64,000 bases of DNA from an uncultured Candidatus Planktophila sp. (GCA_937975715.1 CALJUA010000065.1:4796-68795), one strand, 5' to 3'. Counted from the first letter of the stretch, positions 5,547 to 29,429 are shown. Notes: a model not told the origin generated them from the letters alone. Numbers and translations: made by a program.

Positions 5547-5589
5547 AAAAATGTTGCACTTGTCGGTGGTCGGGGGTATTGTTCTTTTA

Positions 5590-5605
5590 TCGAACAAGCG
5601 TTCGA
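5590..5605. promoter_or_regulatory. SOS box (perfect)
   Basis: TCGAAC-AAGC-GTTCGA between divergent lexA and LysM genes. Confidence 0.9.
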
Positions 5606-5644
5606 AAACCTTCCCCAAGGTTTGTACATGGCAGGAGCAAGACC

Positions 5645-6010: not shown

Positions 6011-6025
6011 TACCCCGATCTAGTG

Positions 6026-6061
6026 TTAGCCTTTACCTATGGTTACTAAGGTAAAGGCTAA
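6026..6061. promoter_or_regulatory. 13-bp perfect inverted repeat over the antitoxin promoter/start (putative TA operator)
   Basis: TTAGCCTTTACCT-N10-AGGTAAAGGCTAA covers the -10 (TAGCCT 6027-6032) and ATG 6039. Confidence 0.7.
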
Positions 6062-6718: not shown

Positions 6719-6800
6719 GGGCAGGGTGGGCTGGAAAATTCTCCCGGGCGTGTCGCACACGCTTTCAACGAGACAACTCTCGAGATTTAGTTTAGAGTTC

Positions 6801-6816
6801 CCACTATATATAGGGG
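6801..6816. promoter_or_regulatory. NrdR box
   Basis: CCACTATATATAGGGG resembles the acaCwAtATaTwGtg consensus; upstream of nrdR-nrdJ. Confidence 0.65.
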
Positions 6817-6871
6817 TTAGAAGCGCAAAAACTTCCATTACTAGGGTTTCTAGTGTAGTTTTCGCAATTCC

Positions 6872-6887
6872 CCACTACATGTAGTTG
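6872..6887. promoter_or_regulatory. NrdR box
   Basis: CCACTACATGTAGTTG, quasi-palindrome upstream of nrdR. Confidence 0.7.
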
Positions 6888-6924
6888 GATGAAAGACTCA
6901 GTATTTCGAGAGGAGACACGCCGC

Positions 6925-7440
6925 ATGATCTGCCCATTTTGCCGCCATGACGATTCGCGCGTGATCGACTCTCGCCCCGTAGAAGATGGCACCCAGATTC
7001 GCCGTCGCCGCGAGTGCCCAGAATGTGGCCAGCGCTTCTCAACCCAGGAAGTCGCCCTGCTCAACATCATTAAGCGCTCGGGTGCAACCGAACCATTTAG
7101 CCGCGAGAAGGTCCTCGTAGGCGTCCGTAAGGCATGCCAGGGCCGTCCGGTTAATGAGGATGATTTAGTTCTCTTGGCACAGCGCGTAGAAGAGACTCTG
7201 CGCGCCACAGGTCAGGCAGAGATCGAGGCCAATGAGGTCGGAATGGCGATCCTTGCGCCACTCCGCGAACTCGATGAGGTCGCCTACCTGCGATATGCCT
7301 CTGTCTATCGTAACTTTGCCTCCTTAGAAGATTTTGAAGGAGAGATCGCACTTCTCCGCGCTCTACCTTCAAATAGCAGTGAAAATAGCAAGACCCCTTC
7401 CTCCGCCAGCAAGACAACAACTAGCTCTGCAAAGAGTTAA
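6925..7440 (+). CDS. nrdR: Transcriptional repressor NrdR
   Basis: [12 protein letters not shown]...[16 protein letters not shown] zinc ribbon plus ATP cone ([17 protein letters not shown]). Confidence 0.97.
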
Positions 7441-7517
7441 TTGGCCCCTTGCGCCCAAAAACTAAATACAGCAAAAGCAATAACCACCAGAAAAATTAGA
7501 AGACGGGAAAAAGAGAT

Positions 7518-10433: not shown

Positions 10434-10557
10434 TTGTTATCGGGGTCGATGTAATTTCGAACCGGCGGTTATAGTCCGCGACCCGCACGCAGCCAGTGTG
10501 CGGTTGACTCAGTGAAATTCTGAGACCGACGGTTAAAGTCCGGATGAGAGATAACGA
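10434..10557 (+). ncRNA. FMN riboswitch (RFN element)
   Basis: CGGGG...ACCGGCGGT..AGTCCGCGA...GTGAAATTC...CCGACGGTTAAAGTCCGGATGAGAG, closed by TTGTTATC/GATAACGA; upstream of ribD. Confidence 0.95.
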
Positions 10558-10649
10558 TTGCGCACTGCGCACCCATTGTGGGGTGCGTTGGCGTTTTCTT
10601 TTGCATACCCCCGATAACTCGTGCAACACCAAACGAGATAGGGGATGAG

Positions 10650-11651
10650 ATGTTAAATATCGCAGATGCATATTCGCATCTTCATTCCCTCTGCCTCTCT
10701 GTCCTCGGTAATAGCGCACCGAATCCCAATGTCGCAGCTGCAATTTATGCAGCAGATGGATCTTTGATCGCTGATGGCGTTCATAATCGCCAGGTATCTA
10801 CCGATCATGCAGAAGTTGTTGCACTGAAGAAAGCTGGGGCAGCTGCTCGCGGGGCAACCATTGTTGTTTCGCTTGAGCCATGCAATCACGCTGGAACAAC
10901 TGGTCCATGTGTTGATGCAATTATCGAAGCCGGCATTGTGCGCGTTATCTTTGCAGTGAAGGATCCCAACCCTGTTGCAGCAGGCGGGGCAGAACGTTTG
11001 AAATCTGCTGGAATCGCTGTTGAATTTGTCGAAAGCAGCGAACTTCGCGATGCGCAAGGTGCCTGGTTGCACCGCATCGCAACTGGTCGTCCTTACATAA
11101 TCTGGAAGGTGGCAACGACTCTCGATGGTCGCATCGCAGCCAGCGATGGCACATCACAGTGGATCTCATCGGATGCATCACGATCAGATGTACAGAAGCT
11201 GCGCGCACAATCAGATGCAATTCTGATCGGCACCGGCACCGCACTTGCTGATAATCCAACGTTGCGGCCACGCATTGATGGCGCCTCCAATCCGCTTCGT
11301 ATCGTGATGGGTAGCCGTGATGTACCGGCGGATTTCAATCTCAATGACGGAATTAGCCAGACGATCTTTCTGAAGAGTCGTTCAGTTGATGAACTCTATA
11401 AAGCCTTGGATTACCTACCGGTCAATCAAGTACTTGTTGAGGCGGGGCCAACTCTGGGAAGTGCTCTCTTTGCAGCAAGTGTCATTGATGAAGTTGTTAT
11501 CTACCAAGCGCCTAAAGCACTTGGTAGCGGTCGCACCTGGTTGGAAGCAATTGGTGTGGCAACAATTAGCGATGCTGCGAAGTTTGAGTTGCTATCTACC
11601 GAACAAATCGGTGTTGATTTGAAGTTCCGATATAGAGTGGAGAAGCGCTGA
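10650..11651 (+). CDS. ribD: Bifunctional riboflavin deaminase/reductase
   Basis: PNPNV, HAE, SLEPCNH..TTGPC deaminase motifs; TLDGRIA, SQWIS, DNPTL reductase motifs. Confidence 0.95.
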
Positions 11652-16225: not shown

Positions 16226-16999
16226 TTAAGCGACGAGAAGTGAGCGCTTAGATAGTCCCATCCAGAAACCTTCGATAAGAGTCTCTGGCGCTGCATCGAT
16301 ATCGCTGCCAGCACCAAGGGCAACAAAGAGCGGAGTGAAGTGCTCGACAGTTGGGTGTGCATACTGAACTGCAGGAGCGAGATCCTTATATGCAGCAAGT
16401 GAATCGATATCTCCTTTAGCAAGTCGCTCTGCCGCCCAGGTATCAAACTCAGATGACCATCCTGGTGCTTTCGCATCAATAGACCAATCGCGAAGGAAGG
16501 GAAGTCCGTGAGTCATAAAGCCAGAGCCGATAATCAAGACACCTTCATCGCGAAGTGGAGCAAGGCGACGGCCGAATTCAATCAGCTTTCCAGGATCTGA
16601 TGTTGGCATCGACATTTGAAGAACTGGAATATCGTGATCTGGATACATCACGCGAAGTGGAACCCACGCGCCGTGATCGAGTCCACGCTTTGATTCATGT
16701 AAAGGATCTGACTTAGGCATCATCGCTGTAATGCGTGCAGCTAGAGCGGTGGCATCGGGAGTCTCGTATGTCATCTCAAAGAACTTCTGGGCAAAGCCAC
16801 CGAAGTCATAGACAAGCGGAGTGCCGGCGTGGGGACTAGTAATTGCAATGGGAGCTGATTCCCAGTGAGCCGAGATAATCAAGATTGCCTTTGGTTTCTC
16901 AAACTTCTTTGTGATTGCAGCCAACTCACCGCTCCAGACAGGATCGTCGAGCAGCAACGGTGCACCGTGGCCGATATAGAGGGCAGGCATCTTTTCCAT
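16226..16999 (-). CDS. DODA-type extradiol ring-cleavage dioxygenase (YgiD/LigB family)
   Basis: YIGHGAP, ISAHWE, RGLDHGAWVPL, GSGFMTH, AHPTVEHFTPL. Confidence 0.9.
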   Translation of the reverse strand: MEKMPALYIGHGAPLLLDDPVWSGELAAITKKFEKPKAILIISAHWESAPIAITSPHAGTPLVYDFGGFAQKFFEMTYETPDATALAARITAMMPKSDPLHESKRGLDHGAWVPLRVMYPDHDIPVLQMSMPTSDPGKLIEFGRRLAPLRDEGVLIIGSGFMTHGLPFLRDWSIDAKAPGWSSEFDTWAAERLAKGDIDSLAAYKDLAPAVQYAHPTVEHFTPLFVALGAGSDIDAAPETLIEGFWMGLSKRSLLVA

Positions 17000-17063: not shown

Positions 17064-18200
17064 TTATAGGCGGGAGAGGAGGATTGCCTGGACTTCGCCA
17101 TCAGATGGAGCAATTGGGTTATTGCTCGTCACTGAATCAGCAAGAACAGTCTTGGCAATATCGCCAACCATCTCTTGCTTGACACCGTAGTGGGAGAGTG
17201 AGTTACGAATCTGGATCGAATCTGCGAGATCGCGAACCGCTTCGATTGCAGTATCTGAGTTTGCACTGACGCCCATATCGTTTCCGACAGTTGCATAAAT
17301 GTCGCTTACTTCGCGCGCATTAAATTGCATAACCTCAGGTAGCACAGTTGCAAGCGCCTCGCCATGTGCTGCGCCAACATGTGCTGAGACAGAGTGAGCG
17401 ATTCCGTGAACCAGGCCAAGACCTGACAAGGTAAGTGCAAGACCGGCAAGGTGAGCGCCCATCAACATATCGCCACGAGCATCAACATTTGCGCCATCCT
17501 TAACTGCGATGGGAAGTGCGCGAGCAATCAACTTGACCGCTTGGTGGGCATATGCGGCAGATACGGGTGTGCTGCCTTTTGAGGTTAAAGATTCAATAGC
17601 GTGAGTAAGTGCGTCGATTCCAGTTCCTGCAGTTGGACGTGGTGGCAATCCAATCGTTAGCTCTGGATCGAGAATTGCAGCGACCGGAGTTGTGCTGGCA
17701 TCACCAACATAGAACTTGCATTGGCGAATTGGGTCATCAATAACGCCCCAGTTATTTGTCTCTGATCCAGTTCCAGCTGTTGTTGGAATCGCGATGATTG
17801 GAAGGGCTGGACGTTCAGGTGTTATCGAGTAATCAAACTTGGCAGATGAGAATGTTGGGTTTGCAACAACCAATGCGATGCCTTTAGAAGAGTCGAGCGA
17901 TGAACCGCCACCGAGAGCGACGATGCAATCTGCACCAAAGGTGATGCCGTGCTTCGCCGCAGCATCAATCAGGGTGGTGGTTGGATTGGGCTTAATGTCA
18001 GTGTAGGACGCTGTTTCTATGCCGGCTGACTTTAGAATCGCTTCGACTTTTGCCAACACACCAGCGGCAGCAACACCTGGGTCGGTAACGATAAAGACCT
18101 TCTTCTTATTTAATCCAGCGACAACTTCTGGAAGCTGTGCAACAGAACCTGCGCCAAAACGAATATTGACTGAGCCAGGTGTAAGTGTGAATGCGTTCAT
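17064..18200 (-). CDS. Iron-containing alcohol dehydrogenase
   Basis: GGGSSLD, AIPTTAGTGSE, DALTHAIE, GLVHGIAH, HGEA. Confidence 0.92.
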   Translation of the reverse strand: MNAFTLTPGSVNIRFGAGSVAQLPEVVAGLNKKKVFIVTDPGVAAAGVLAKVEAILKSAGIETASYTDIKPNPTTTLIDAAAKHGITFGADCIVALGGGSSLDSSKGIALVVANPTFSSAKFDYSITPERPALPIIAIPTTAGTGSETNNWGVIDDPIRQCKFYVGDASTTPVAAILDPELTIGLPPRPTAGTGIDALTHAIESLTSKGSTPVSAAYAHQAVKLIARALPIAVKDGANVDARGDMLMGAHLAGLALTLSGLGLVHGIAHSVSAHVGAAHGEALATVLPEVMQFNAREVSDIYATVGNDMGVSANSDTAIEAVRDLADSIQIRNSLSHYGVKQEMVGDIAKTVLADSVTSNNPIAPSDGEVQAILLSRL

Positions 18201-18236
18201 GATCTGCCTATCTCTTCTTTGAGGTTGCTGCCGGGA

Positions 18237-19004
18237 TTATTTCTTATGTGTCAGTAAATCTGTAATGCGCTCTGATGCTTTCTTCATCTCATTTGCAGCA
18301 GAGATGAGGTGTTCTTCAAATCGTGCTTTTGGTGCGGCGACGTTAATCGCTGCGACAATTGAACCATTGAAATCGCGAACTGGCACAGAGGCACCAACTA
18401 GACCTGGTTCATACTCTTCGATGACAAGCGCGAAACCATCTTTACGAATCTTCTGAAGTTCTTTAATAAGTTCTTCACCTGTCCTGGTCTTGCACAACAG
18501 GGGAGCGCCTTCAATCTTCTTCTTCAGTGGATAGATGCGTTCAACTTGGTCATCTTCTAATCCGGAAAGCAGAACACGACCAGATGAAGTCATATATGAA
18601 GGCGCTGTTACACCCATCCAACTCAGCGCACGGAAACCATGTGCAGGTGACTCGGAGTGGATAGTGACAACTTCAAGTCCTTGCAGAACGGTGAGGTGCA
18701 CGGTTTCGCCGAGTTTATGAACAATTCCATGGAGCTCGCCGCGAGCTGCGGTAACGAGTTGTGCCTCAAAGGTATAGCGAGCGATCGCATAGAGACGCGG
18801 TCCAACGATGACGCCAGCGCCCTGTCGTAATAACAATCCGTTATCAAGTAGGCGAGAAACTGCGCGTGAGATCTGACTTTTCTCTCGGCGAGTGCTGATT
18901 GCAAGGTCGCCATTGCGCTGTGGAATGGGCGATGCCGCCGCTACCGCCTCAATAATCTCTAAATCACGCTCAAGGCCGTTGTTACGCACAAGTGAGTTGG
19001 GCAT
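18237..19004 (-). CDS. IclR-family transcriptional regulator
   Basis: N-terminal HTH, LGETVHL, SSGRVLL, VGASVPV, AAINVAAP. Start set at ATG 19004. Confidence 0.9.
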   Translation of the reverse strand: MPNSLVRNNGLERDLEIIEAVAAASPIPQRNGDLAISTRREKSQISRAVSRLLDNGLLLRQGAGVIVGPRLYAIARYTFEAQLVTAARGELHGIVHKLGETVHLTVLQGLEVVTIHSESPAHGFRALSWMGVTAPSYMTSSGRVLLSGLEDDQVERIYPLKKKIEGAPLLCKTRTGEELIKELQKIRKDGFALVIEEYEPGLVGASVPVRDFNGSIVAAINVAAPKARFEEHLISAANEMKKASERITDLLTHKK

Positions 19005-19062
19005 GTTGCAAATAATACAACTCTCGGTGCGCCTATTGCAACAAACAATTTGCAGGAGCAGG

Positions 19063-19755
19063 ATGTGGTTCATGAAGATGGAAGATTATTTGGTGCCGTT
19101 GACGCCACCGAATCTTTTGCAATTCATCTCGGTGCAACGCGAAAAGATCATTCACGATGTCATCGCACAGATTGAACTTGTTTTATTAGTGATGGCACTC
19201 GTTTCTTTTACAGCAATCATTACCGGTCTTGTTGTGTGGAAGTCATCAACTGCATCTGAAATCGTTACCGGTTTCTGGTCAATTGTTTTCACAATTCCAT
19301 CGCTTGCAATGTTTATCTTCTTTATCGGTCCATTTGGTTTGGGTTGGCTTCCTGCTGTCATTGCACTTGTTCTCTATGGGCAGTTGCCAGTTGTTCGCAA
19401 CACCATCGTTGGATTGCGCTCTGTAGAGCCAGCAATTATGGAATCTGCAGCTGCTATGGGAATGAAGCCAATGACAGTCTTGCGCAAGATTCAATTCCCA
19501 CTAGCTTGGCCGGTAATCATCGTGGGTATTCGCGTCTCAGCGATGTTGATCTTCGGTATCTCTGCAATCGCTGCATATGTCGGTGGTCCTGGTCTTGGCG
19601 ATTATCTCTTCAGTGGTTTAGCAAATCTCGGTTCATTCAACTCAATGAATCAGACTTTGGTCGGAGCTTTCGGAATCACTCTGCTCGCACTGATCTTTGA
19701 TGGAATTTTCGTTTTGATTCGTCGTGTAACAACTCCAAGGGGGCTACGTGTCTAA
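19063..19755 (+). CDS. Osmoprotectant-type (OpuC/ProW-like) ABC permease
   Basis: TIPSLAM, PVVRNTIVGL, ESAAAMGM, IQFPLAWPVI, GGPGLG. Confidence 0.88.
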   Translation: MWFMKMEDYLVPLTPPNLLQFISVQREKIIHDVIAQIELVLLVMALVSFTAIITGLVVWKSSTASEIVTGFWSIVFTIPSLAMFIFFIGPFGLGWLPAVIALVLYGQLPVVRNTIVGLRSVEPAIMESAAAMGMKPMTVLRKIQFPLAWPVIIVGIRVSAMLIFGISAIAAYVGGPGLGDYLFSGLANLGSFNSMNQTLVGAFGITLLALIFDGIFVLIRRVTTPRGLRV

Positions 19756-20713
19756 CACAACTCACGGTCAAGAAATTCGCTTAGAGAAACTCACGAAGCG
19801 ATATCCCAACACCCAGAAGGATGCCGTCTCTGAGTTCAACCTCGTCATCCCTGCCGGTGAGTGCGTTGTCTTCGTTGGCCCATCTGGCTGCGGAAAAACC
19901 ACCACGATGAAGATGATTAACCGCATTATTGAGCCAACTTCAGGTCGCATCGTTATTGGTGGAGAAGATGTCACTAAGACGCCCGCACACGAGCTTCGCC
20001 GCAACATTGGTTATGTAATTCAGCAGATCGGCCTCTTCCCTCACATGACAATTGCAGACAACGTTGCAACTGTTCCTCAACTCCTAGGGTGGGAGAAGAA
20101 CAAGACACGTGCGCGAGTCAATGAACTCTTAGAGCTCGTCGGGCTCGATCCAGCTGAATACGGATCACGTTATCCAAAGCAACTCTCGGGTGGACAGCAG
20201 CAGCGCGTGGGCGTTGCTCGTGCGCTTGCTGCTGACCCAGCGGTCTTGTTGATGGATGAACCGTTCGGTGCAACAGATCCAATTACACGCGTTCGCCTGC
20301 AGAAAGAGTTCCGCGCTCTCCAACGTGAACTTAAGAAGACAGTTGTCTTCGTAACGCACGATTTCGAAGAGGCACTTCTTCTTGGTGATCGCATTGCAGT
20401 TTTATCCGAGCAGTCAAAGGTCGAACAGTATGGAACTCCGCTTGAGATCCTCTCAGCGCCTGCAACAAAGAAAGTTGAGAGCTTTGTCGGCGAAGCAGCC
20501 AGCGTCCGTATGCTCGGACTTGTCTCACTTGCAGCAGTTGACCTGAAATCAGGAACAGTCGATGGGCCAACACTTGCTGAGACAGCAACTCTTCGCGAAG
20601 CGATGGAAGGTTTCATCACCGGTGCAAAAGCGATCAACGTCGGCACCAAGGGGCACCTCACATTTGAAGCTCTTCAAAGCGCCATCTCTCATACACGACA
20701 GGGCGCTAAGTAA
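19748..20713 (+). CDS. Osmoprotectant-type ABC ATP-binding protein (OpuCA/ProV-like)
   Basis: GPSGCGKTT, LSGGQQQRVGVARALAADP, LLMDEPFGA. Confidence 0.92.
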   Translation: MSNTTHGQEIRLEKLTKRYPNTQKDAVSEFNLVIPAGECVVFVGPSGCGKTTTMKMINRIIEPTSGRIVIGGEDVTKTPAHELRRNIGYVIQQIGLFPHMTIADNVATVPQLLGWEKNKTRARVNELLELVGLDPAEYGSRYPKQLSGGQQQRVGVARALAADPAVLLMDEPFGATDPITRVRLQKEFRALQRELKKTVVFVTHDFEEALLLGDRIAVLSEQSKVEQYGTPLEILSAPATKKVESFVGEAASVRMLGLVSLAAVDLKSGTVDGPTLAETATLREAMEGFITGAKAINVGTKGHLTFEALQSAISHTRQGAK

Positions 20714-20715
20714 AA

Positions 20716-21507
20716 ATGGCAAAAGCGTTAGCAAAACCAAACCTGACTGCGGGATCTTTGTATTCGCAATCAGCTCGTTTGATTTTTAAGCGCCACCGCT
20801 CTCTCATTATTCAACCGGTATTAATTGCTCTGCTCTCAATTATTTTGGCAGTTTCACTTAGCCGAGCTCATCTCGATGTCATTGAGAAAGTCACCATCAA
20901 CCAGGCATTTATCTTCCGCGCAATTCAGGATCACTTGATTCTCTCCTTCGCATCTGCGGCAGTGATTCTTCTGGTTGCAGTGCCGGCGGGAATTTTGCTT
21001 ACCCGACGTCGCTATAAGAAGTTCACGCCGATTGTCTTAATCCTTGCCAATATCGGGCAGGCTTTTCCAGCAGTTGGTGTCCTGATCATCGCGGGAATTC
21101 TCTTTGGTTTTGGAAAGCCAGTAGCAATCTTCTCTTTCGCAGCTTTTGGAATCCTTCCAATCTTGCGCAACACGATTGTTGGCTTGCAGGAGATCGATCC
21201 ATTCATTATCGAATCAGCCCTTGGTATGGGAATGACTCCTCGCCAAGCGCTACGTCAGATTGAACTGCCACTTGCAGTCCCAGTCATTCTGGCCGGTGTT
21301 CGCACCACACTCATTCTTACCGTTGGCATCGCCACTTTAGGTGTCTTTGTTAACGGGGGAGGTCTAGGAACGCTCATTATTCCTGGCCTAAAGCTCAATC
21401 GGGAGCTCGTTCTAGTTACCGGAGGAGTGCTCACAGTTATTGTGGCATTCACGATGGATTGGCTTGCGCGTGCTGCTGAAGAACTCCTTCGACCACGAGG
21501 GATTTAA
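20716..21507 (+). CDS. Osmoprotectant-type ABC permease
   Basis: ILRNTIVGL, ESALGMGMT, IELPLAVPVI, GGGLG. Confidence 0.88.
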   Translation: MAKALAKPNLTAGSLYSQSARLIFKRHRSLIIQPVLIALLSIILAVSLSRAHLDVIEKVTINQAFIFRAIQDHLILSFASAAVILLVAVPAGILLTRRRYKKFTPIVLILANIGQAFPAVGVLIIAGILFGFGKPVAIFSFAAFGILPILRNTIVGLQEIDPFIIESALGMGMTPRQALRQIELPLAVPVILAGVRTTLILTVGIATLGVFVNGGGLGTLIIPGLKLNRELVLVTGGVLTVIVAFTMDWLARAAEELLRPRGI

Positions 21508-21527
21508 TACCTAAGGAAGGGTAAAAA

Positions 21528-22460
21528 ATGCAGGTAAGAAGCCACAAAGTAGTTGCTATTGCAGCTGCAATTGCTCTCGCAGTTGTCGGAACAGCAGCAA
21601 CATCAACATCAGCTAACGCAGCTGGAAAGTCCCTTAAGGGAGTTAAGGTCATTGTTGGTTCGAAGGACTTTACAGAGTCAATCGTTCTCTCAAAGATCGT
21701 TAAGCAGTTCATCATCGCTAACGGTGGAACTGTCGTCGATAAGACAAACATCAAGGGTTCTTCAACAACTCGTGAAGCAATGCTCAGCGGTGACATCAAC
21801 ATGTACTGGGAATACACAGGTACAGCATGGTTGGTTTACCAGAAGCAGACAGATGTAAACATCGCTCCATCAGACCTTTACAAGAAGGTTGTCGCTGGCG
21901 ACAAGAAGAACAAGGTCACATGGGGACCAATGACTTCATTTAACGATACTTACGCATGGGCAATCACAAAGGCAAATGCAACTAAGTACGGAATCAAGAC
22001 ATACTCAGATCTCGCAAAGAAGCTCCCTGCAGGTTCTGCATGGTGCGTAGAGTCAGAGTTCCAGAGCCGTCCAGATGGATGGGCAGGCTTCAAGAAGGCT
22101 TACGGAATTTCAGATTCAAACATCACAACTAAGGTCCTTGATACTGGCGCTATCTACCAGGCAACAAAGGATGGACAATGCATGGTTGGTGAAGTATTCG
22201 CAACTGACGGACGTATCGGCGCACTTGGCTTGATGGTTCCAGCAGAAGATATCTCTTACTTCCCTCCTTACAACGCTGCAATCACAATGACTGATGCAAT
22301 TGCAAAGAAGTACCCACAGCTTGTAAAGGCTTTGGCTCCAATTGCAGGAAAGATCAGCAATGCAACAATGCAGAACCTCAATGCTCGTATTGACGTTCTC
22401 GGAGAAGATGCAGACACAGTTGCGAAGAGCTTCTTGTCAGCATCAGGATTGGTAAAGTAA
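21528..22460 (+). CDS. Glycine betaine/choline-family ABC substrate-binding protein
   Basis: Signal peptide; VGSKDFTES, YWEYTGTA, FNDTYA, EFQSRPDG, VFATDG, FPPYNA motifs of OpuCC-type binding proteins. Confidence 0.9.
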   Translation: MQVRSHKVVAIAAAIALAVVGTAATSTSANAAGKSLKGVKVIVGSKDFTESIVLSKIVKQFIIANGGTVVDKTNIKGSSTTREAMLSGDINMYWEYTGTAWLVYQKQTDVNIAPSDLYKKVVAGDKKNKVTWGPMTSFNDTYAWAITKANATKYGIKTYSDLAKKLPAGSAWCVESEFQSRPDGWAGFKKAYGISDSNITTKVLDTGAIYQATKDGQCMVGEVFATDGRIGALGLMVPAEDISYFPPYNAAITMTDAIAKKYPQLVKALAPIAGKISNATMQNLNARIDVLGEDADTVAKSFLSASGLVK

Positions 22461-22464
22461 CAAA

Positions 22465-22965
22465 ATGATTGAAATCCAGATCGGCGAAGGTTTTGTAGGT
22501 TCAGGACCAAACGCGGCCCACACCAACACAATTCTCGGAGCTCGATCTGGGCCCGCTGGAGTGGCATGGGCAACTGCCCTTGCCACTCCTCGCGCGGGTC
22601 ACGTGCCATACATGGTTGTTGCTCAACCAGGTGTAGCCGTGACGCCGCCAACTCTCTTTGTAAATAAGGCAGCTGTTGAAAGTGATCAGCACGGCCTCTT
22701 TACCTGGGGAGCAGCACAGGCAGGAGTTGCCGCAGGAGTCGGAGAGGCGCTGCGCAATGGAATTATTGATGTGAACTCAACAAATGATCTCGTCATTGTT
22801 GCCGCGGTGTGGCTCAACCCATCTGCCAACGATGAGGAAGAGGTCTTTCAGAATCAACGACAGGCGATGATTGATGCCCTGACAAACGGTAAGAATGGAT
22901 ATCCCACTGCTGCCGATGTCATGAAAGCAACAGAGAATGTCGCTAATCCTTTCTTCCGACAGTAA
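22465..22965 (+). CDS. Formaldehyde-activating enzyme (Fae) family protein
   Basis: IGEGFVG..NAAH, P.TLFVNK, WGAAQAGVA.GV, AVWLNP and C-terminal NPF pattern of Fae homologues. Confidence 0.82.
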   Translation: MIEIQIGEGFVGSGPNAAHTNTILGARSGPAGVAWATALATPRAGHVPYMVVAQPGVAVTPPTLFVNKAAVESDQHGLFTWGAAQAGVAAGVGEALRNGIIDVNSTNDLVIVAAVWLNPSANDEEEVFQNQRQAMIDALTNGKNGYPTAADVMKATENVANPFFRQ

Positions 22966-22998
22966 CAATTCCCACTACTAAAGATTCGAGTACGCCTG

Positions 22999-24102
22999 AT
23001 GAAAATCACGAATATTCGCTTTGAGCGAGCCTCTCTGCAATTAGATCCACCGTTCTGCCCTAACTGGGATCCAACGCCACGTCGCACATTTGGTGCAACG
23101 TTGACGATTGTTGAGACCGATGGCGGAGTTATCGGCTACGGCGCAGGCGACGATATGGGTGGATTCGATGGGTACGAGAAGTACTTCATCGGCAAAGATC
23201 TCTTCGATATCGCAGAGCATGTACGCACTCTCGAAACAATTACTTTTCACGCCGGTCGCTACTGGCCAATTGAGGTAGCAATCTGGGATGCCATCGGTAA
23301 GGCGAAGAACCAGACAGTGGCGCAACTCTTCGGTGGTGCAGAGAAATCTATCCCTGCCTATGCCTCAACCGGTGCGGTAATGACTGCACCTGAGCGCGCT
23401 GCAAGTGCTCGCGCAATTCGCGATGCTGGCTTTAAAGCGATGAAGATTCGCGTGCCACAAACACAACTAGATTTGGGAATTGAAACGCTGAAGTTGATTC
23501 GCGAAGAAGTAGGAAATGACCTTGAGATTATGGTTGACCTCAACCAGGCATGGCGCATGCCAGGCGATACTCGCAAATCTATTGATCGTAAGACTGCAAT
23601 GAACTTTGTTGATGCTGCAGTTGATTACGGCGTTTACTGGATCGAAGAACCACTTCCAATGGAAGATATGGAGGGCCTGAAGTCACTTCGCGGTCGAGGA
23701 ACTCGTATTGCTGGTGGCGAAATGGTTCGCACAATTCACGAAATCCTTACTCTGGTAGATAACGATGCACTCGATGTTATTCAGGCAGATGTTGTTCTCG
23801 CTGCCGGCATGGATCACTCACGTGAAATCGCACGTCGTGCCAATGAGCGCGGACACATCTTTACTCCGCACACCTGGTCTAACGGTTATGGACTGGCTGC
23901 AAATCTCCATGTCACAGCTGGCATCGGTGGCGCACCATTTATTGAATTCCCATTTGATCCGCCAACCTGGACCAGCGAACGTCGTGACTTCTTGATGGCA
24001 GAGCCAATGAATGTCGGTAGTGATGGATTACTCCATGTTCCATCTGGTCCGGGACTTGGAATTGAGCCAAACTGGTCTCTCTTTAAGAAATCTGTAGCGT
24101 AA
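22999..24102 (+). CDS. Mandelate racemase/muconate lactonizing enzyme (enolase superfamily) protein
   Basis: AIWDAIGK, MVDLNQ, WIEEP, GGEMV, IQAD, TPHTW, IEFP, GPGLG. Confidence 0.92.
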   Translation: MKITNIRFERASLQLDPPFCPNWDPTPRRTFGATLTIVETDGGVIGYGAGDDMGGFDGYEKYFIGKDLFDIAEHVRTLETITFHAGRYWPIEVAIWDAIGKAKNQTVAQLFGGAEKSIPAYASTGAVMTAPERAASARAIRDAGFKAMKIRVPQTQLDLGIETLKLIREEVGNDLEIMVDLNQAWRMPGDTRKSIDRKTAMNFVDAAVDYGVYWIEEPLPMEDMEGLKSLRGRGTRIAGGEMVRTIHEILTLVDNDALDVIQADVVLAAGMDHSREIARRANERGHIFTPHTWSNGYGLAANLHVTAGIGGAPFIEFPFDPPTWTSERRDFLMAEPMNVGSDGLLHVPSGPGLGIEPNWSLFKKSVA

Positions 24103-24112
24103 GGAGCTATCT

Positions 24113-25603
24113 GTGGCACTCGATAAAGATGCGTGGGTTAAGCGCGCCCTAGAACTTAAGCCAGAGTCGCGTATGTACATCAATGGTGCATATGTTGATG
24201 CTGCATCCGGAAAGACCTTCGATGACATCTCTCCACGCGATCAGCGACTAATTGCAAAGATTGCAGCAGGCGACACTGAAGATGTGAATCGCGCAGTAGC
24301 TGCAGCGAAGGCTGCATTTGATTCCGGTGTGTGGCGCGAGATGAATCCACGCGATAAGAAGGCGATTATGCTCAAATGGGCAGATCTCATCCGCGAGCAT
24401 CAAGAAGAACTTGCACTCCTTGAGACACTCGATGTCGGAAAGCCAATCTCAGATTCGCTCAATGTTGATGTGATGGGCTGTGCTCGTACTGTTCAGTGGT
24501 ACGGCGAAGCAATTGATAAGACTTATGACGAGATTGCACCTGCTCCTCGCAACGCATTAGCGATGATTACTCGTGAACCTCTTGGTGTAGTAGGCGCAGT
24601 TGTTCCTTGGAACTATCCAATGATCATCGCATCATGGAAGGTTGCCCCAGCACTTGCAATGGGAAATAGCGTTGTATTGAAGCCCGCCGAGCAATCATCA
24701 CTGTCTGCAATCTTGCTCGCTCGCCTTGCAACTGAAGCGGGAATTCCAAACGGAGTATTTAACGTTGTAACGGGTCTCGGACCTGAGGCAGGACAGGCGC
24801 TTGCTCGCCATATGGATGTAGCAAAGTTGGCATTTACTGGCAGCGGACCAACAGGTCGCAAGATGCTCCAATATGCAGCTGAATCCAATATGAAGCAGGT
24901 TGCACTCGAGCTCGGTGGCAAGAGCCCGCAGGTTGTGCTCGATGACGTCAAGGATCTCGATGCATGTGCATCAACACTTGCTTGGGGCATCTATTACAAC
25001 GCAGGCCAGACATGTAATGCGGGTTCACGTGTCATTGTGCAGGGTCAGAAGATTAAAGAGCAGCTCTTTGAGAAGATGTCGGAATTCGTCAAGACCTTCC
25101 CAGTTGGCGATTGCCTCGATCCTTCTGTCTATATGGGTCCAATAGTTTCGACTCAGCAGCGCGATCGCGTTAACCACTATCTCAACATGGTGGGTCAGAA
25201 CGGCGAATCATTTATCTACGGTGGCGAACAACCAACTGGCGATGACAACTTGATTAAGCCAACTCTGATTGATGGCGTTAAGCATGAATCAGTTTTGTCA
25301 CAGGAAGAGATCTTCGGTCCAGTCATCGTTGAAGTCGATGCTAAGGATGAGACAGATGCGCTAGCAAAGGCGAATGGCACTGAGTACGGACTTGCTGCTT
25401 CAGTTTGGTCGGGCAATATCTCGCGCGCACATAACTTTGCTCGCAAACTCCGCGCTGGAACTGTATGGGTCAATACCTTTGACGCATCTGATGTCATCAC
25501 ACCATTTGGTGGTTTCAATGGCTCAGGCGCTGGTCGCGATAAGTCACTTCATGCACTTGAGAATTACAGCGCACTTAAGACAACTTGGATCGACCTCTCT
25601 TAA
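24113..25603 (+). CDS. NAD-dependent aldehyde dehydrogenase (PuuC-like)
   Basis: VPWNYP, LKPAEQS, AFTGS, LELGGKSP, NAGQTC, EEIFGP, PFGGF. Confidence 0.93.
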   Translation: MALDKDAWVKRALELKPESRMYINGAYVDAASGKTFDDISPRDQRLIAKIAAGDTEDVNRAVAAAKAAFDSGVWREMNPRDKKAIMLKWADLIREHQEELALLETLDVGKPISDSLNVDVMGCARTVQWYGEAIDKTYDEIAPAPRNALAMITREPLGVVGAVVPWNYPMIIASWKVAPALAMGNSVVLKPAEQSSLSAILLARLATEAGIPNGVFNVVTGLGPEAGQALARHMDVAKLAFTGSGPTGRKMLQYAAESNMKQVALELGGKSPQVVLDDVKDLDACASTLAWGIYYNAGQTCNAGSRVIVQGQKIKEQLFEKMSEFVKTFPVGDCLDPSVYMGPIVSTQQRDRVNHYLNMVGQNGESFIYGGEQPTGDDNLIKPTLIDGVKHESVLSQEEIFGPVIVEVDAKDETDALAKANGTEYGLAASVWSGNISRAHNFARKLRAGTVWVNTFDASDVITPFGGFNGSGAGRDKSLHALENYSALKTTWIDLS

Positions 25604-25637
25604 TTTCAAATCGAACGCACATACAAAGGAGCTCAAC

Positions 25638-26528
25638 GTGAAGGTTGCATTTATCGGTACAGGCAGCATGGGTGGAAGCATGTCGAGAAACCTCGCTGCT
25701 GCTGGAATTGATATCACCGTCTTCGACCTCAATACCGAGAGCATGCAGAAGCCAATTGCTGCTGGTGCAAAGGCGGCAACATCAGGCGTTGATTGCGTTA
25801 CAGGTGCAGATGTTTTGATCACGATGCTTCCAACCCCACAAGCGATTGAAGGTTGCATGATTGCTGGCGGTGTTGCTGCAGCGATGAAGCCAGGTTCAAT
25901 GTGGATTGATATGTCTACCTCAGTTCCAGAGACTGCAAAGGCAGTGGAGAAGGCGCTAGATCCATCAGTGCGCATCATCGATGCACCAGTAGCTGGAATG
26001 TCAGTGGGTGCTGACAAGGGAACAATGTCTATCTTCGCCGGCGGAAGCCCAGAAGATTTTGCATATGCAAAGCCGCTCTTCGACATCATGGGAGACCCAG
26101 AGAAATTCTTTAACTGCGGAGCTCGCGGAACTGGTTATGCAGTCAAGCTCGTCCTTAACATGCTCTGGTTTAACTCATTCGTTGCGACCACTGAAGCGCT
26201 TCTCCTTGGCGTCAAGGCTGGCGTGGATCTAGAAGTTCTTCGCCAATCGCTGATCGGTTCACCATGTAACTCAATCTTGCTGGAGCGCGACATCGTTGGA
26301 ATGCTCAAGGATGGCGATTACGACGAGGGCTTTGCTGTTGCTCTTGCATGTAAGGATCTTCGCCTTGCTGGCGACCTTGCACGTTCAGTCGGCGTTCCAA
26401 TGGAGGTAGGTGCAACGGTAGAGAATGTCTATCGTCGTGCTCGTGCTCGCTACGGTGATAAGGCTGGCGAGATGATTCCAGCGAAGATGTACGAAGACGA
26501 CACAAATACACCGCTTCGCTTCAAGTAA
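25638..26528 (+). CDS. NAD(P)-dependent oxidoreductase, 3-hydroxyisobutyrate / 6-phosphogluconate dehydrogenase family
   Basis: FIGTGSMG, DAPVAG, AVKLVLN, KDLRLA; GTG 25638 with AAGGAG SD. Confidence 0.9.
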   Translation: MKVAFIGTGSMGGSMSRNLAAAGIDITVFDLNTESMQKPIAAGAKAATSGVDCVTGADVLITMLPTPQAIEGCMIAGGVAAAMKPGSMWIDMSTSVPETAKAVEKALDPSVRIIDAPVAGMSVGADKGTMSIFAGGSPEDFAYAKPLFDIMGDPEKFFNCGARGTGYAVKLVLNMLWFNSFVATTEALLLGVKAGVDLEVLRQSLIGSPCNSILLERDIVGMLKDGDYDEGFAVALACKDLRLAGDLARSVGVPMEVGATVENVYRRARARYGDKAGEMIPAKMYEDDTNTPLRFK

Positions 26529-26533
26529 CTCCG

Positions 26534-27421
26534 ATGTCTAACCGCTTGAGCAGCTCGACCATCTTTGGTCTAGCTGTCATGTGGTTTGTCGGGGGAGGCA
26601 TCTATCCATTTCTCTCCCATGCGGCAAAGACAATCGATCCCATCAATATCGTCTTTATCCGGGCCTGGGGCGCAGCGCTGATTCTCTTTATCGCAGTATT
26701 AGTGATGGCGCCGAAGTCATTTCGGCTATTGAAGTTTGATAAGAGCTTTATTCCCATCGTTATCTCATCAATGATGTACTCACCACTCTGCAGTATGACT
26801 TTGGCCTGGTCGAGCTCACGTGTGCCTGGAGCAATTACCGCGCTGATTTATTCCACTCTTCCGGCGATGTCGATCATCTTTATTGCGATGAAAGGTCAGC
26901 GACCATCACCACTTGCCATTAGTGGCGTTGTTGTTGCATCGGTTGCAGTTATTTTTCTCATCGGAGCCCCACAGGGAAGTGTGCAGATCGCTGGAATTAT
27001 CGGCGCCTTGATCTCTACATTTGCATGGTTTGCTGCAACAGAAATCTGGATTAAGTATGAGAGCGGCTACCCACTTATATTGGCCATCTTCTTGCAAGTA
27101 TTTATAGGCGCTGTCGGCACAACTATTGTGCACTTCTTCTCTCACACCGAAGGCGTTACCTCGAAAGACCTACTTAATCCGTCAATGATTTTTCTTGTTG
27201 TTGCTCTTGCTTCACAATATTGGGCGTATCTAGGAATCTCGCGTCGAGTCTCTCCGGCGTTGCTGACCTCATTTGCCTTCGTTAATCCATTGGTCGCTGG
27301 GGTAATTGGCTACTTTGCCTTTGATCAGCACCTCGGTCCAGTGCAGTTGATTGCCGGTGCAATTCTCTTGGTAGGCATCTACCTGGTGGTGAAGAGCGAA
27401 ACTACATCAGTAGATAGATAG
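26534..27421 (+). CDS. EamA/DMT-family transporter
   Basis: Ten hydrophobic segments in two repeats; SFAFVNPLVA. Confidence 0.8.
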   Translation: MSNRLSSSTIFGLAVMWFVGGGIYPFLSHAAKTIDPINIVFIRAWGAALILFIAVLVMAPKSFRLLKFDKSFIPIVISSMMYSPLCSMTLAWSSSRVPGAITALIYSTLPAMSIIFIAMKGQRPSPLAISGVVVASVAVIFLIGAPQGSVQIAGIIGALISTFAWFAATEIWIKYESGYPLILAIFLQVFIGAVGTTIVHFFSHTEGVTSKDLLNPSMIFLVVALASQYWAYLGISRRVSPALLTSFAFVNPLVAGVIGYFAFDQHLGPVQLIAGAILLVGIYLVVKSETTSVDR

Positions 27422-27431
27422 AGTGCGCTCC

Positions 27432-29429
27432 ATGAGCGAGCTTTCAGCCCAGGTGCGTGCAGCGTTAGATGCTGCGGTATCGGCAATCGGCGGAAAGCCG
27501 CGCGAAGGTCAGATTGAGATGGCAGAGGCGGTTGCCAATGCGCTCACCGATCGCCACCACTTAATGGTGCAGGCAGGAACCGGAACCGGAAAGTCACTGG
27601 CCTACTTAATTCCCGCGCTCGTTCATGGCCGCAAAGTCTTGGTAGCGACTGCGACGCTTGCACTGCAACGTCAATTAGTAGAACGCGATCTGCCGGCAGT
27701 TGTACCAGCGTTGGAAAAACAACTAGGTCGCGAGATTACCTATGCCATTTACAAGGGCGTTGGAAATTACATCTGCTTAGCGAAGATGAATTCAGAGGAA
27801 CCCGATCCCGATGGCGAACTTCTGCTCGAGGCTTCTTATTTAGAGAAAGATGCCAAGCGACTTCATGCCTGGGCGCGCAGTAAAGATGTATCGGGAGATC
27901 GCGATGATGCGCCAGAGGTTGATCGCCGAGTCTGGGCTGCAAATTCACTCTCCGGTCGTGAATGTGTCGGCGCTGATGCATGCGCCTATGGCTCACAGTG
28001 CTTTGCAGCAAAAGCTAAAGCAAAGGCCCAGGATGCTGATGTTGTCGTTACCAACCACACCTTGCTTGCTATCGAAATTGTTGATTCGCACCCAATCTTG
28101 CCCGAGCGCGATGCGGTAATTCTCGATGAGGCCCATGAATTTATGGATCGCACCACCCAAGCTGTTACCGAAGAGCTGACATCGGCTCGGGTGCAGCGTG
28201 CGGCTGCGATGGCTCGTAAATATATGCCGGGCAAGCTATCTGATGCTTTTACCAATGCAGCTGATTCTTTCCACGATGCGATGAATGATTATGGAGAAGA
28301 TGTGAAAGGCGACTTCTCTAAGCAGGGTCGCTTGGAAGAGATTCCGCAATCACTGGAGCACCCAGTGCGCAAGGTGAAAGAGACTGCAACTTCGCTAGTG
28401 CAATCACTGGCATCGGATGAAGAGATTTTGGATCCGGATGCACTCGCCGAGCGCGCTCGAGTCAAGGGTGCGGTGCAGGAAATTGCAACAACCGCTGGCA
28501 AATTGTTAAAGATGGGCGATACCCATGTGCTCTGGTACGAGCCAACTTTCTCAACGCTGCATTTAGCGCCGCTTTCGGTCTCGCATATCTTGCGCAGTAA
28601 TTTATTAACACAGAGCCCAGTGATTGCAACCTCAGCAACTCTTACTGTGGGCAATGGTTTTGATGCAATGGCTAAGAGCATCGGCTTTGTTGTTGGAAAT
28701 GAAGCAGATGAAGAAGTCGATAGCGATGAGATCGATCCCGGCAATGTGCAGTTCTTAGATGTGGGATCGCCTTTTGATTTTGCTAATCAAGGAATGTTGT
28801 ATCTACCGAAGCATCTGCCAGAACCCACCCGTGATGGCACATCGCCGCAGGTATTGGAAGAACTGGGTGAATTAATTGATGCTGCCGGTGGCCGCACACT
28901 TGCCCTCTTTAGTTCGTGGCGTGGAGTTGAAGCAGCCGATGCCCACCTTCGAAAAGTCTTAGCCGAACGCCCTATTTCAATCATTACCCAGAAGCGCGGC
29001 GATGCAGTTGCACCACTGGTCGAACGTTTTGCAAAAGATGAAACATCAGTCTTACTTGGAACGATGTCGTTATGGCAAGGCGTAGATGTGCCCGGTAATT
29101 CATGCATTCTCGTTGTCATCGATCGCTTGCCATTTCCACGACCAGATGAGCCAGTACTTGCTGCGCGATCAGCGCTTGCTGATAACTCTGGTGGAAGCGG
29201 TTTTATGCAGGTCTCTGTTCCGCGCGCAGCGCTCTTGCTGGCGCAGGGGGCTGGTCGATTGATTAGAAGTATCGATGACCGCGGTGTGGTGGCCATCATG
29301 GATTCGCGCATTGTGACCAAACGCTATGGAAATATCTTGCTCAACTCTATGCCGCCACTCTGGCGCACCAACGATAAGCAGGTGGTGCGAGACTCACTGA
29401 GCAGGTTGGCAAAGAGCATGGAAGAATAA
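27432..29429 (+). CDS. dinG: DinG-family ATP-dependent DNA helicase
   Basis: QAGTGTGKSLAYL, VATATLALQRQL, ILDEAH, TSATL, WQGVDVPG, QGAGRLIR. Confidence 0.92.
   Translation: MSELSAQVRAALDAAVSAIGGKPREGQIEMAEAVANALTDRHHLMVQAGTGTGKSLAYLIPALVHGRKVLVATATLALQRQLVERDLPAVVPALEKQLGREITYAIYKGVGNYICLAKMNSEEPDPDGELLLEASYLEKDAKRLHAWARSKDVSGDRDDAPEVDRRVWAANSLSGRECVGADACAYGSQCFAAKAKAKAQDADVVVTNHTLLAIEIVDSHPILPERDAVILDEAHEFMDRTTQAVTEELTSARVQRAAAMARKYMPGKLSDAFTNAADSFHDAMNDYGEDVKGDFSKQGRLEEIPQSLEHPVRKVKETATSLVQSLASDEEILDPDALAERARVKGAVQEIATTAGKLLKMGDTHVLWYEPTFSTLHLAPLSVSHILRSNLLTQSPVIATSATLTVGNGFDAMAKSIGFVVGNEADEEVDSDEIDPGNVQFLDVGSPFDFANQGMLYLPKHLPEPTRDGTSPQVLEELGELIDAAGGRTLALFSSWRGVEAADAHLRKVLAERPISIITQKRGDAVAPLVERFAKDETSVLLGTMSLWQGVDVPGNSCILVVIDRLPFPRPDEPVLAARSALADNSGGSGFMQVSVPRAALLLAQGAGRLIRSIDDRGVVAIMDSRIVTKRYGNILLNSMPPLWRTNDKQVVRDSLSRLAKSMEE

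Follow-up and report, generated by a model that had tools for sequence, protein, structure and literature searches.

What does a homologue of the formaldehyde-activating enzyme Fae do in an operon that also encodes a betaine-type importer? The characterized Fae (EC 4.2.1.147) condenses formaldehyde with tetrahydromethanopterin (H4MPT). The window analyzed in this study, a stretch of 64,000 nucleotides from an uncultured Candidatus Planktophila sp. (GCA_937975715.1 CALJUA010000065.1:4796-68795), carries, within positions 17064-27421, a Fae-family gene together with genes for an IclR-family regulator, an iron-type alcohol dehydrogenase (Fe-ADH), a transporter of the ATP-binding cassette (ABC) type, an enolase-superfamily enzyme, an aldehyde dehydrogenase (ALDH), a 3-hydroxyisobutyrate dehydrogenase-like (HIBADH-like) enzyme, and an EamA-type transporter. 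The Fae protein is a true member of its family by sequence and fold, yet it fails three features that define the characterized enzyme. With a probability that we place slightly below even, we read the cluster as an IclR-controlled catabolic island of some acI actinobacteria for an imported quaternary-ammonium carboxylate (betaine), in which the enolase would carry out an elimination and Fae and the HIBADH-like enzyme would form an aldehyde module that works without methanopterin; both the substrate and the reactions are what we infer. It is a substrate-specific catabolic operon whose building blocks come from known superfamilies, and three of its enzyme functions are unassigned.

The Fae gene (22465-22965, plus strand) encodes a protein that scored 153.6 bits against PF08714 (cut-off, 27) and 127.4 bits against TIGR03126 (cut-off, 118.05), which places it within the sequence family. 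Its AlphaFold model (pLDDT, 96.5) superposed on 1Y60 with a TM score of 0.93 and a root-mean-square deviation of 1.4 Å, indicating that the fold is retained. It can be aligned over its full length with Fae of Methylorubrum (M.) extorquens AM1 (1Y5Y/1Y60) at 29-35% identity, and His21 and most of the glycine/proline framework are kept; the window copy differs in lying in a transporter/enolase/dehydrogenase operon and not in an H4MPT-linked one-carbon (C1) cluster. At 50% identity, the whole Fae family comprised only 764 clusters in an exhaustive profile-free search. A quick tree was built from 92 members with SH-aLRT support values; in it, the M. extorquens enzyme, a copy of genome G145 located beside the genes for methenyl-H4MPT cyclohydrolase (MCH) and formyltransferase (FTR), and 12 others formed a canonical clade on a long branch with 99% support. 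The window protein fell outside this clade and grouped with that of locus L032 and with Fae genes coupled to HIBADH genes. Column statistics, with residues numbered as in the 1Y5Y chain, yielded a signature common to both non-canonical groups and distinct from the canonical clade: D23N, E18N, Q/N44P, F83W, F118W, H120N/D, and Y134R. In the window protein, the canonical-invariant residues D23, F83, F118, H120, and Y134 are replaced by N, W, W, N, and R, respectively, and E18 likewise gives way to N, while His21 is retained in non-canonical Fae. The tree and the signature place the window protein in a non-canonical branch of Fae that is itself large.

The host genome (Nanopelagicaceae, 1.69 Mb, 99.99% complete) contains a single Fae gene. 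No match to MCH (PF02289) was obtained at E<=1 and none to FTR (PF01913) at E<=0.1 in this genome; these two served as the H4MPT markers, mtdB and mptG not being searched separately. MCH and FTR were also absent from 10 other Fae-bearing Actinomycetota, and, as noted in a preliminary description of the region, no H4MPT gene flanks the window Fae. Genome G145 (loci L046 and L057), the single exception, served as a positive control: its canonical Fae (234 bits) lies within about 8 kb of MCH and FTR, and a second, divergent Fae sits in the row Zn-ADH-Fae-enolase-HIBADH (Zn-ADH, zinc-type alcohol dehydrogenase). The occurrence of two paralogues in two contexts in one genome argues for two functions. 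In G145 the match to MCH falls in two separate frames (421331-421669 and 421668-422264), possibly owing to a frameshift. Since the host has neither of the searched markers, its Fae homologue cannot perform the textbook reaction. The view that it is nevertheless a canonical H4MPT-dependent Fae can draw on the TIGR03126 score, which is just over the cut-off, but with MCH and FTR absent and the protein outside the canonical clade, this view is effectively excluded.

The preliminary description had regarded the Fae gene as an isolated orphan repurposed in this cluster. This did not hold: the protein belongs to a branch whose genes regularly stand beside an enolase family and particular dehydrogenases or oxygenases. 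From whole genomes, assemblies, and a metagenome scan, 89 loci with Fae were gathered, Nanopelagicaceae being excluded. Directly downstream of Fae, the enolase family was found at 28 of 63 loci and the HIBADH subfamily at 8 of 63; directly upstream, a class-III-like Zn-ADH was found at 22 of 60 loci and an Fe/2-oxoglutarate (2OG) oxygenase resembling HalD at 16 of 60. Fae and enolase genes often have overlapping stop and start codons. Frames of 551-591 amino acids over some Fae matches were considered as possible Fae-enolase fusion proteins, an idea that was rejected by frame arithmetic and Pfam matches, as the two genes lie in different frames and the long frames are high-GC artifacts. The best families of the Zn-ADH were N,N-dimethyl-4-nitrosoaniline (NDMA)-dependent alcohol dehydrogenase and the mycothiol-dependent and class III formaldehyde dehydrogenases, all with scores below the cut-offs. 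Some loci continue with genes for an SDR, an FAD oxidase, and an FGGY kinase, and the importers vary between the betaine type (window operon, L032, and L056) and a peptide/opine type (family 5). The Fe/2OG oxygenase-Fae pairing is a third architecture of the non-canonical branch. The oxygenase, a protein of about 280 amino acids with a weak HalD/BesD-type match, is encoded by a gene that often overlaps Fae, and the enolase gene is absent there; examples are L069, L081, L094, L101, L102, L109, L111, L117, L120, L125, L127, and L137. At L099 (8489-9976), a gene of the histidine/phenylalanine ammonia-lyase family, to which ergothionase belongs, lies directly upstream of a non-canonical Fae and is adjoined by a family-5 ABC importer.

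The genes that surround the window Fae also occur in separate groups. The enolase family was found without Fae at L028, L029, L138, and L140. Locus L140 (Rubrobacter) has the order permease-ATPase-permease-OpuAC-enolase-ALDH-FeADH, which is the window order minus Fae and HIBADH; L028 carries OpuAC, a succinate-semialdehyde dehydrogenase (SSADH)-like ALDH, enolase, a PuuC-like ALDH, and Fe-ADH; and in L138 (Amycolatopsis) an IclR gene is followed by enolase, Fe-ADH, and amino-acid permease genes. Conversely, Fae and HIBADH form a bare, translationally coupled pair at L026, L027, and L030, preceded at L026 and L027 by a gene of the hexose-kinase (1-PFK/PfkB) family, and at L056 the pair lies by a betaine transporter and a homocysteine S-methyltransferase gene. 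The SSADH-like second ALDH was seen in the fuller clusters L028 and L032. Since the parts occur apart, the acI operon is a composite of two modules, transporter-enolase-ALDH-FeADH and Fae-HIBADH. Beyond a LysR gene at L140 (10564-14146) come GcvT-like, MTHFR, SoxB-like, and SoxD genes, an arrangement that would suggest that the product of that locus is a methylated amine handled via tetrahydrofolate.

These neighborhoods bear on an explanation that we consider possible though somewhat unlikely, namely that the protein is a true formaldehyde-activating Fae whose acceptor is not methanopterin, be it tetrahydrofolate, mycothiol, or another compound, the adduct being oxidized by the HIBADH-like enzyme (by the Zn-ADH in soil organisms), so that the pair would detoxify or harvest formaldehyde from a methylated solute. 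The Fe/2OG oxygenases directly upstream of Fae belong to the kind from which formaldehyde-releasing demethylases usually come, and the Zn-ADH has formaldehyde dehydrogenases among its best families. The bare Fae-HIBADH pairs are self-sufficient, L056 offers a C1 context, and the Fae-less L140 operon adjoins sarcosine-oxidase, GcvT-like, and MTHFR genes; the score over the TIGR03126 cut-off and the retained His21 also fit this explanation. A thiol carrier is available, since mycothiol synthesis is present in the host (MshC, 536 bits, over the cut-off), and a mycothiol-dependent formaldehyde dehydrogenase was not found in its genome. Against this, no formaldehyde source is evident in the operon or in the genome. 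Sarcosine/dimethylglycine oxidase (SoxB-like), BHMT, HalD-type 2OG oxygenase, flavin monooxygenase, and class-III-like Zn-ADH were not found in the host genome, and neither was a lyase of the histidine ammonia-lyase (HAL) type; an SSADH-like ALDH is encoded elsewhere in it. The GCV_T-family matches amounted to only one strong frame of 365 amino acids, presumably GcvT, and one weak frame of 314 amino acids, which we take to be possibly YgfZ-like. The only homocysteine S-methyltransferase match lay in a frame of 1179 amino acids, presumably MetH. Demethylation of glycine betaine was rejected as a formaldehyde source, with no candidate enzymes for it in the genome beyond the GCV_T frames and the presumed MetH. 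Furthermore, the formaldehyde explanation has to accommodate the replacement of canonical-invariant residues (D23N, H120N, and Y134R), a private dehydrogenase that would be needless for methylene-tetrahydrofolate, and the close linkage to the enolase, which it leaves unexplained.

The importer is encoded on the plus strand by permease 1 of the ProW/OpuCB type (19063-19755; BPD_transp_1), an ATPase of the ProV family (19748-20713; TIGR01186 proV, 306 bits), permease 2 (20716-21507; BPD_transp_1), and an OpuAC-type binding protein (21528-22460; PF04069, 198 bits) that has a signal peptide and belongs to the quaternary-amine (F-III) type; this order, permease-ATPase-permease-binding protein, corrects the one listed earlier. 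The best PDB match of the binding protein was EgtUC (2e-37, about 30% identity). In SpEgtUC, the aromatic residues of the cage, the carboxylate contacts, and the thione contacts have been assigned, and the substitution G244F lowers the affinity about 100-fold (PMC9732360). In the alignment, the cage F293/Y341/Y419/Y443 corresponds to Y/Y/F/Y in the window protein, with N339 replaced by D; the carboxylate triad K242/T296/R379 is K/T/R, and E375 and D381, which hold the Arg, are kept; the ergothioneine-specific residues I243/G244/T274, of which Gly244 is invariant in EgtU, are D/F/G. With the cage and the triad kept and the thione residues lost, the ligand should be a trimethylammonium-type cation with a nearby carboxylate and not ergothioneine. 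Ergothioneine uptake was rejected as a function, the specificity residues not being conserved and ergothionase being absent. The preliminary description had assigned the protein to the OpuC type, whose members bind quaternary amines and related zwitterions, and had listed betaines, choline, and polyamines among the ligands to be tried; the type is confirmed, and the site favors a betaine with a carboxylate over choline or polyamines. The window protein shares the PF04069 fold, the cage, and the K/T/R contacts with the F-III binders EgtUC, Archaeoglobus (A.) fulgidus ProX, B. subtilis OpuCC/OpuBC, and E. coli OsmF/YehZ, and the transporter shares with F-III systems its composition of two permeases, one ATPase, and one binding protein. 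It differs from EgtU, in which the binding protein is fused to the permease, in having a separate, secreted binding protein, and a CBS domain was not detected in the window ATPase.

The enolase gene (22999-24102, plus strand; MR_MLE_C, 171 bits) encodes a protein with the pattern of the mandelate racemase (MR) subgroup, whose best PDB matches were 3ozm and 3h12 from Bordetella (E, 4e-33). In the alignment with 3ozm, the metal ligands are kept (D of VDLNQ, E of EEPL, and E of GGEM), and so is the Asp-His dyad of strands 6 and 7, with QADV and PHTW aligned with QADA and PHTF; the dyad is conserved in the family. The KxK motif of strand 2 is absent, the window protein having K-I-R and the family K-x-R throughout. 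An insert of 10 residues that begins with WRMPGD, located past the first metal ligand, also marks the family. The presence of a single acid/base pair makes β-elimination (dehydratase or lyase activity) likelier than two-base racemization, judging from the established mechanisms of the superfamily. Among the curated equivalogs of NCBIfam, the best match was TalGalacDh with 110.5 bits against a cut-off of 500; all 15 matches were far below their cut-offs (311-750), and no score exceeded the cut-off for TalrD/GalrD, GalD, RhamD, c3LHyp dehydratase, MLE, OSBS, or AE epimerase. The acid-sugar dehydratases of the MR subgroup (3OZM/3H12, L-talarate/galactarate, and galactonate) resemble the window enolase in the barrel, the three metal ligands, and the Asp-His dyad, and differ from it in that the latter has K-x-R, the 10-residue insert, and a genomic context of amine type instead of sugar type.

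This resemblance raises the idea of acid-sugar (aldarate/aldonate) catabolism, in which the enolase would be a sugar-acid dehydratase, the ALDH of the α-ketoglutarate-semialdehyde type, and the HIBADH-like enzyme a tartronate semialdehyde reductase (TSR), the transporter being mis-typed. Among solved and curated proteins, those closest to the enolase are indeed xylarate/lyxarate binders and L-talarate/galactarate, galactonate, and arabinonate dehydratases; the HIBADH-like protein scores nearly equally on the TSR and HIBADH models (176 against a cut-off of 340.75 and 182 against 291.6, respectively); and a 1-PFK/PfkB family gene precedes some Fae-HIBADH pairs. We nevertheless regard this idea as very improbable. 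The binding protein retains the four cage aromatics and the betaine carboxylate triad, the ALDH is nearest to amino-aldehyde dehydrogenases, the enolase falls far short of the cut-off for its best sugar-acid family and lacks KxK, and the operon has no aldolase, lactonase, or KDG-type kinase. A match to the glucarate/galactarate pathway was likewise rejected, as no aldolase is encoded.

The remaining enzymes were examined in the same manner. The ALDH (24113-25603, plus strand) is of the ω-amino-aldehyde type (KauB/PuuC-like): its best family was PuuC (567 against a cut-off of 850), its best PDB match was KauB (5iuu/6b4r; E, 5e-159), and γ-glutamyl-γ-aminobutyraldehyde dehydrogenase was also near. 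The nearest solved relatives act on cationic C4-C5 aldehydes. The HIBADH-like enzyme (25638-26528, plus strand; NAD_binding_2 and NAD_binding_11) belongs to the β-hydroxyacid dehydrogenase family, with the two-domain architecture and the catalytic Lys kept (in the alignment, the Lys of PA0743 falls on the K of GYAVKLVLN). It has DAPVAGM where characterized members have DAPVSGG, a replacement common to all Fae-linked orthologues, which are 47-59% identical to it and follow Fae in L026, L027, L030, L056, and L057. A role as an imine reductase was not favored, with matches of about 1e-40 to β-hydroxyacid dehydrogenases against about 1e-5 to imine reductases and with the catalytic Lys kept. The Fe-ADH (17064-18200, minus strand; group III, with Fe-ADH and ADH_Fe_C domains) was below every NCBIfam equivalog cut-off (lactaldehyde reductase, 286 against 523; GbsB, 253.6 against 550). 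Its best PDB match was an NAD-dependent methanol dehydrogenase (8zrl; E, 1.6e-70), a relationship that would suit a formaldehyde-handling Fae. An Fe-ADH orthologue occurs in the same cluster as the enolase family, mostly adjacent to it, at L028, L047, L079, L138, and L140.

The matches of the Fe-ADH to GbsB and of the ALDH to betaine aldehyde dehydrogenase (BADH) would also be expected of an osmoprotectant unit that converts choline to glycine betaine (GbsAB-like enzymes with an OpuC importer), the other genes being unrelated. Both scores are far below the cut-offs (BADH, 481 against 668.6), the carboxylate triad of the binding protein is not expected for choline, and the host is a freshwater oligotroph. 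Together with the conservation of an 11-gene order as a unit, which also speaks against a canonical Fae among unrelated genes, these points leave the simple choline-to-betaine unit effectively excluded.

In the reading that we prefer, a catabolic island for a betaine, the ABC system would import the betaine. The MR-type enolase would then catalyze the committed step, a Mg-dependent abstraction of the proton next to the carboxylate followed by loss of a β-substituent (hydroxyl or amine), in which the Asp-His dyad alone would provide the acid/base catalysis. Interconversion of the cationic substrate or product between its alcohol, aldehyde, and acid states would fall to the Fe-ADH and the amino-aldehyde dehydrogenase. 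Fae and its dedicated HIBADH-type partner would constitute a portable two-gene module that retains the general chemistry of the Fae family, the reversible joining of an aldehyde carbon and an amine nitrogen, and dispenses with tetrahydromethanopterin. This module might trap a short aldehyde, formaldehyde or another, on some other carrier so that it could be oxidized; alternatively, it might resolve an intermediate of the carbinolamine or iminium type, the partner dehydrogenase taking the aldehyde. EamA (26534-27421, plus strand; PF00892) may export a by-product such as the freed amine. A bolder form of this proposal, which we regard as rather unlikely as a whole, is that the non-canonical Fae branch represents a second functional type that works without methanopterin and with a private dehydrogenase, that the K-x-R enolase is a new betaine lyase or dehydratase, and that the operon gives acI bacteria a route from an abundant algal or zooplankton betaine to central metabolism. 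That betaine could be hydroxylated or resemble carnitine, or it could be the homoserine-betaine head group of diacylglyceryltrimethylhomoserine (DGTS) lipids.

A further explanation, which the frequent adjacency of Fae and enolase at unrelated loci, often with overlapping stop and start codons, favors, is that the two enzymes act in succession on a C-N bond. The enolase would dehydrate or isomerize the betaine to an unsaturated onium compound, and Fae would add water next to the nitrogen to give a carbinol-ammonium that breaks down to an aldehyde or keto acid and trimethylamine, the carbonyl being taken by the ALDH, the HIBADH-like enzyme, and the Fe-ADH. A carnitine-like substrate would in this way yield succinate semialdehyde, and homoserine betaine, converted by the Fe-ADH and the ALDH to aspartate betaine, would yield fumarate and trimethylamine in a methylaspartase-like manner. 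The SSADH-like second ALDH of the fuller clusters, the preference of the ALDH type for cationic C4-C5 aldehydes, the histidine/ergothioneine-lyase-type enzyme upstream of Fae at L099, and the host's lack of any formaldehyde source that we could find all agree with this scheme, and the conserved Arg and larger aromatics gained in the Fae branch could bind the carboxylate and the onium. We nonetheless consider it doubtful and decidedly unlikely. The Fae fold offers no precedent for such a reaction, the enolase family presumably works without Fae at four loci and Fae also occurs without enolase, and the 2OG-oxygenase-Fae pairs fit poorly.

Several observations weigh against a betaine-specific island in which Fae takes part. 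The nearest solved relatives of the enolase bind sugar diacids (xylarate and lyxarate) and not betaines. In several genomes the enolase family presumably functions in the absence of Fae, which may then be no more than an accessory. The importers that accompany the Fae-enolase pair in soil relatives are of the peptide/opine type (family 5), so betaines may not be the substrate class of every such cluster. The Ser-Gly-Gly carboxylate-binding motif is lost in the HIBADH subfamily, which makes its substrate uncertain. If Fae handles formaldehyde, the failure to find the oxidases, methyltransferase, oxygenases, and Zn-ADH named above in the host genome counts against this reading as well.

The cluster was also compared with known systems. 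A pathway for hydroxyproline betaine and proline betaine in which HpbD, an epimerase of the enolase superfamily, goes together with a betaine-type binding protein was reportedly described by Zhao and co-workers in 2013 and by Kumar and co-workers in 2014. The window operon resembles it in having a betaine-type ABC binding protein beside an enolase-superfamily enzyme that would act on the proton by the betaine carboxylate, followed by an aldehyde dehydrogenase. It differs in lacking Rieske/flavin demethylases, a D-amino-acid dehydrogenase, and a deaminase, and in the Asp-His dyad and K-x-R of its enolase; HpbD uses two lysines (an MLE-type pattern). HpbD structures were not among the best 60 PDB matches of the window enolase, and a match to this pathway was rejected, the demethylases being absent and the catalytic pattern different. 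Thiol-dependent pairs, such as Gfa and class III alcohol dehydrogenase of Paracoccus or the actinobacterial mycothiol-dependent formaldehyde dehydrogenase, likewise combine an activating enzyme with a private NAD-dependent dehydrogenase, and the partner in soil organisms is the class-III-like Zn-ADH; the fold of their activating protein is another one, and the partner in the host belongs to the β-hydroxyacid dehydrogenase family. The 3-methylaspartate ammonia-lyase of the enolase superfamily is a precedent for expelling an amine β to the abstracted proton. It belongs to another subgroup with no detectable specific similarity and serves only as a mechanistic model for the window enolase. Searches of the literature on Fae in Nanopelagicaceae or acI, Fae with mandelate racemase, the enolase superfamily with betaine, and homoserine-betaine degradation yielded no description of the cluster or of the Fae branch.

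None of the three findings that had been named beforehand as telling against an uptake-plus-degradation route was made. The gene set matched no named pathway among those tested (hydroxyproline betaine, GbsAB, glucarate/galactarate, and ergothioneine), as had been supposed; a full H4MPT pathway was not detected; and the Fae/enolase linkage recurred at unrelated loci. Of the route itself, which had been called complete, a unit of uptake and catabolism is borne out, and completeness is not, the substrate, the enzyme reactions, and the fate of the amine being those that we infer.

The conservation of this unit was examined in related genomes. The nearest homologues and loci of the window were those of Candidatus Nanopelagicaceae/Planktophila, the freshwater acI lineage. 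In 22 Nanopelagicaceae genomes, complete chromosomes included, all 11 genes from Fe-ADH to EamA were present in identical order, and the cultured strain IMCC25003 (complete genome, L008) has the cluster. A 23rd genome, a Planktophila metagenome-assembled genome (MAG; L003), has the cluster with an internally deleted enolase, of which only residues 1-42 and 245-367 remain (10539-11133), a decayed copy of the operon. On a metagenome contig (L061, 1839-2018), the ALDH is cut to its first 60 residues, with Fae, enolase, HIBADH, and EamA intact. The cluster was also present in L032, a more distant actinobacterial MAG whose Fae is 66% identical; EamA, which is kept after the HIBADH gene throughout Nanopelagicaceae, is absent there, as is a LigB gene. 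The IclR gene accompanies the cluster in L032, L054, L067, L073, L095, and L138 as well. Fae was found in 16 of 201 species-level genomes of Nanopelagicales, in 4 of 13 genera, most congeneric genomes being without it, and in 12 of 401 sampled genomes of the phylum Actinomycetota. The cluster is an accessory trait carried by a minority of acI actinobacteria.

An open-reading-frame map combined with Pfam and NCBIfam profiles recovered in place every gene that had been named in the cluster, and the genes of the plus strand are tightly packed, with intergenic gaps of -8 to 34 nt. Permease 1 starts at the ATG at 19063, 5-6 nt after AGGAG, and not at the GTG at 18892; the HIBADH gene starts at the GTG at 25638, preceded by AAGGAG, and not at the ATG at 25374. 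The IclR gene (minus strand; IclR_C, 104 bits) is divergent from the transporter genes; its frame extends from 18237 to 19073, and the likely start is the ATG at 19004. At the outer edge of the cluster, a gene of the LigB family (class III extradiol dioxygenase-like; 16226-16999, minus strand; PF02900, 108 bits) lies 64 nt downstream of Fe-ADH. It stands beside Fe-ADH only in the closest relatives and is possibly a passenger rather than a core part. At the other edge, a DinG-like helicase gene (27423-29429) begins 1 nt past the EamA stop codon, and many relatives have it behind the cluster as well. It is probably an unrelated neighbor, although a terminator was not seen between it and EamA.

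The divergent control region between the IclR and permease 1 genes (19004-19062), with 58 nt of intergenic sequence, carries the inverted repeat TGTTGCAA-N24-TTGCAACA. The 5-6 nt core of each arm, as the spaced motif TTGCAA-N23-24-TTGCA, is kept at the same place in L015, L019-L022, and L024, and this conservation reaches relatives with about 75% Fae identity. The repeat is a plausible candidate for the IclR operator. A simple scan for promoters and terminators inside the operon gave nothing above chance.

The binding protein had been predicted to be highly expressed on the basis of its codon usage. The fractions of GCA/ACA/TCA/AAG are 0.64/0.65/0.57/0.97 in its gene and 0.64/0.77/0.68/0.91 in nrdJ; for ACA, the value of 0.65 compares with 0.14-0.44 in the other operon genes, and for the other three codons single genes approach it. 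Words from the region were contained in 24 freshwater metatranscriptome runs, and in four lake runs contigs covered the whole operon at low depth. A single contig of 1272 nt that joins the end of the binding-protein gene, Fae, and enolase is consistent with co-transcription. Contig depth, a rough measure that pools relatives at >=90% identity, was higher for the binding-protein gene than for the downstream genes in all four runs, by a factor that varied between runs from about 5 to 400. At this gene, the depth reached 4588-7487 against about 3-23 downstream in run X2, where it exceeded the depth of nrdJ; depths of 448-744 in run X3 and 85-120 in run X1 stood for an intermediate excess; and in run X6, a depth of about 90 amounted to only about 5 times the downstream level. 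These depths agree with the codon bias, and the prediction of high expression is upheld. Between positions 21084 and 22860, the depth rises from the end of permease 2 through the binding-protein gene and falls within the Fae gene. This profile suggests that the binding protein is expressed from a promoter within the operon or that its transcript is processed to a stable form.

Matches to fae are widely used as methylotrophy markers in genomes and metagenomes. As a whole branch of Fae occurs in genomes without methanopterin markers, those of acI and, among the metagenome loci, those of many soil organisms, such matches mis-annotate both function and ecology. The conserved trio of a Fae-like protein, the K-x-R enolase family, and a special HIBADH subfamily presents three enzyme functions that can be approached together, with the binding protein as an easy entry to the ligand and IMCC25003 as a cultured carrier. 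The acI Actinobacteria are the most abundant freshwater bacterioplankton, and what they feed on is a long-standing question of freshwater microbiology. The presence of the binding-protein gene among the strongly transcribed acI genes in lakes points to a specific betaine-like substrate in the dissolved organic matter of lakes.

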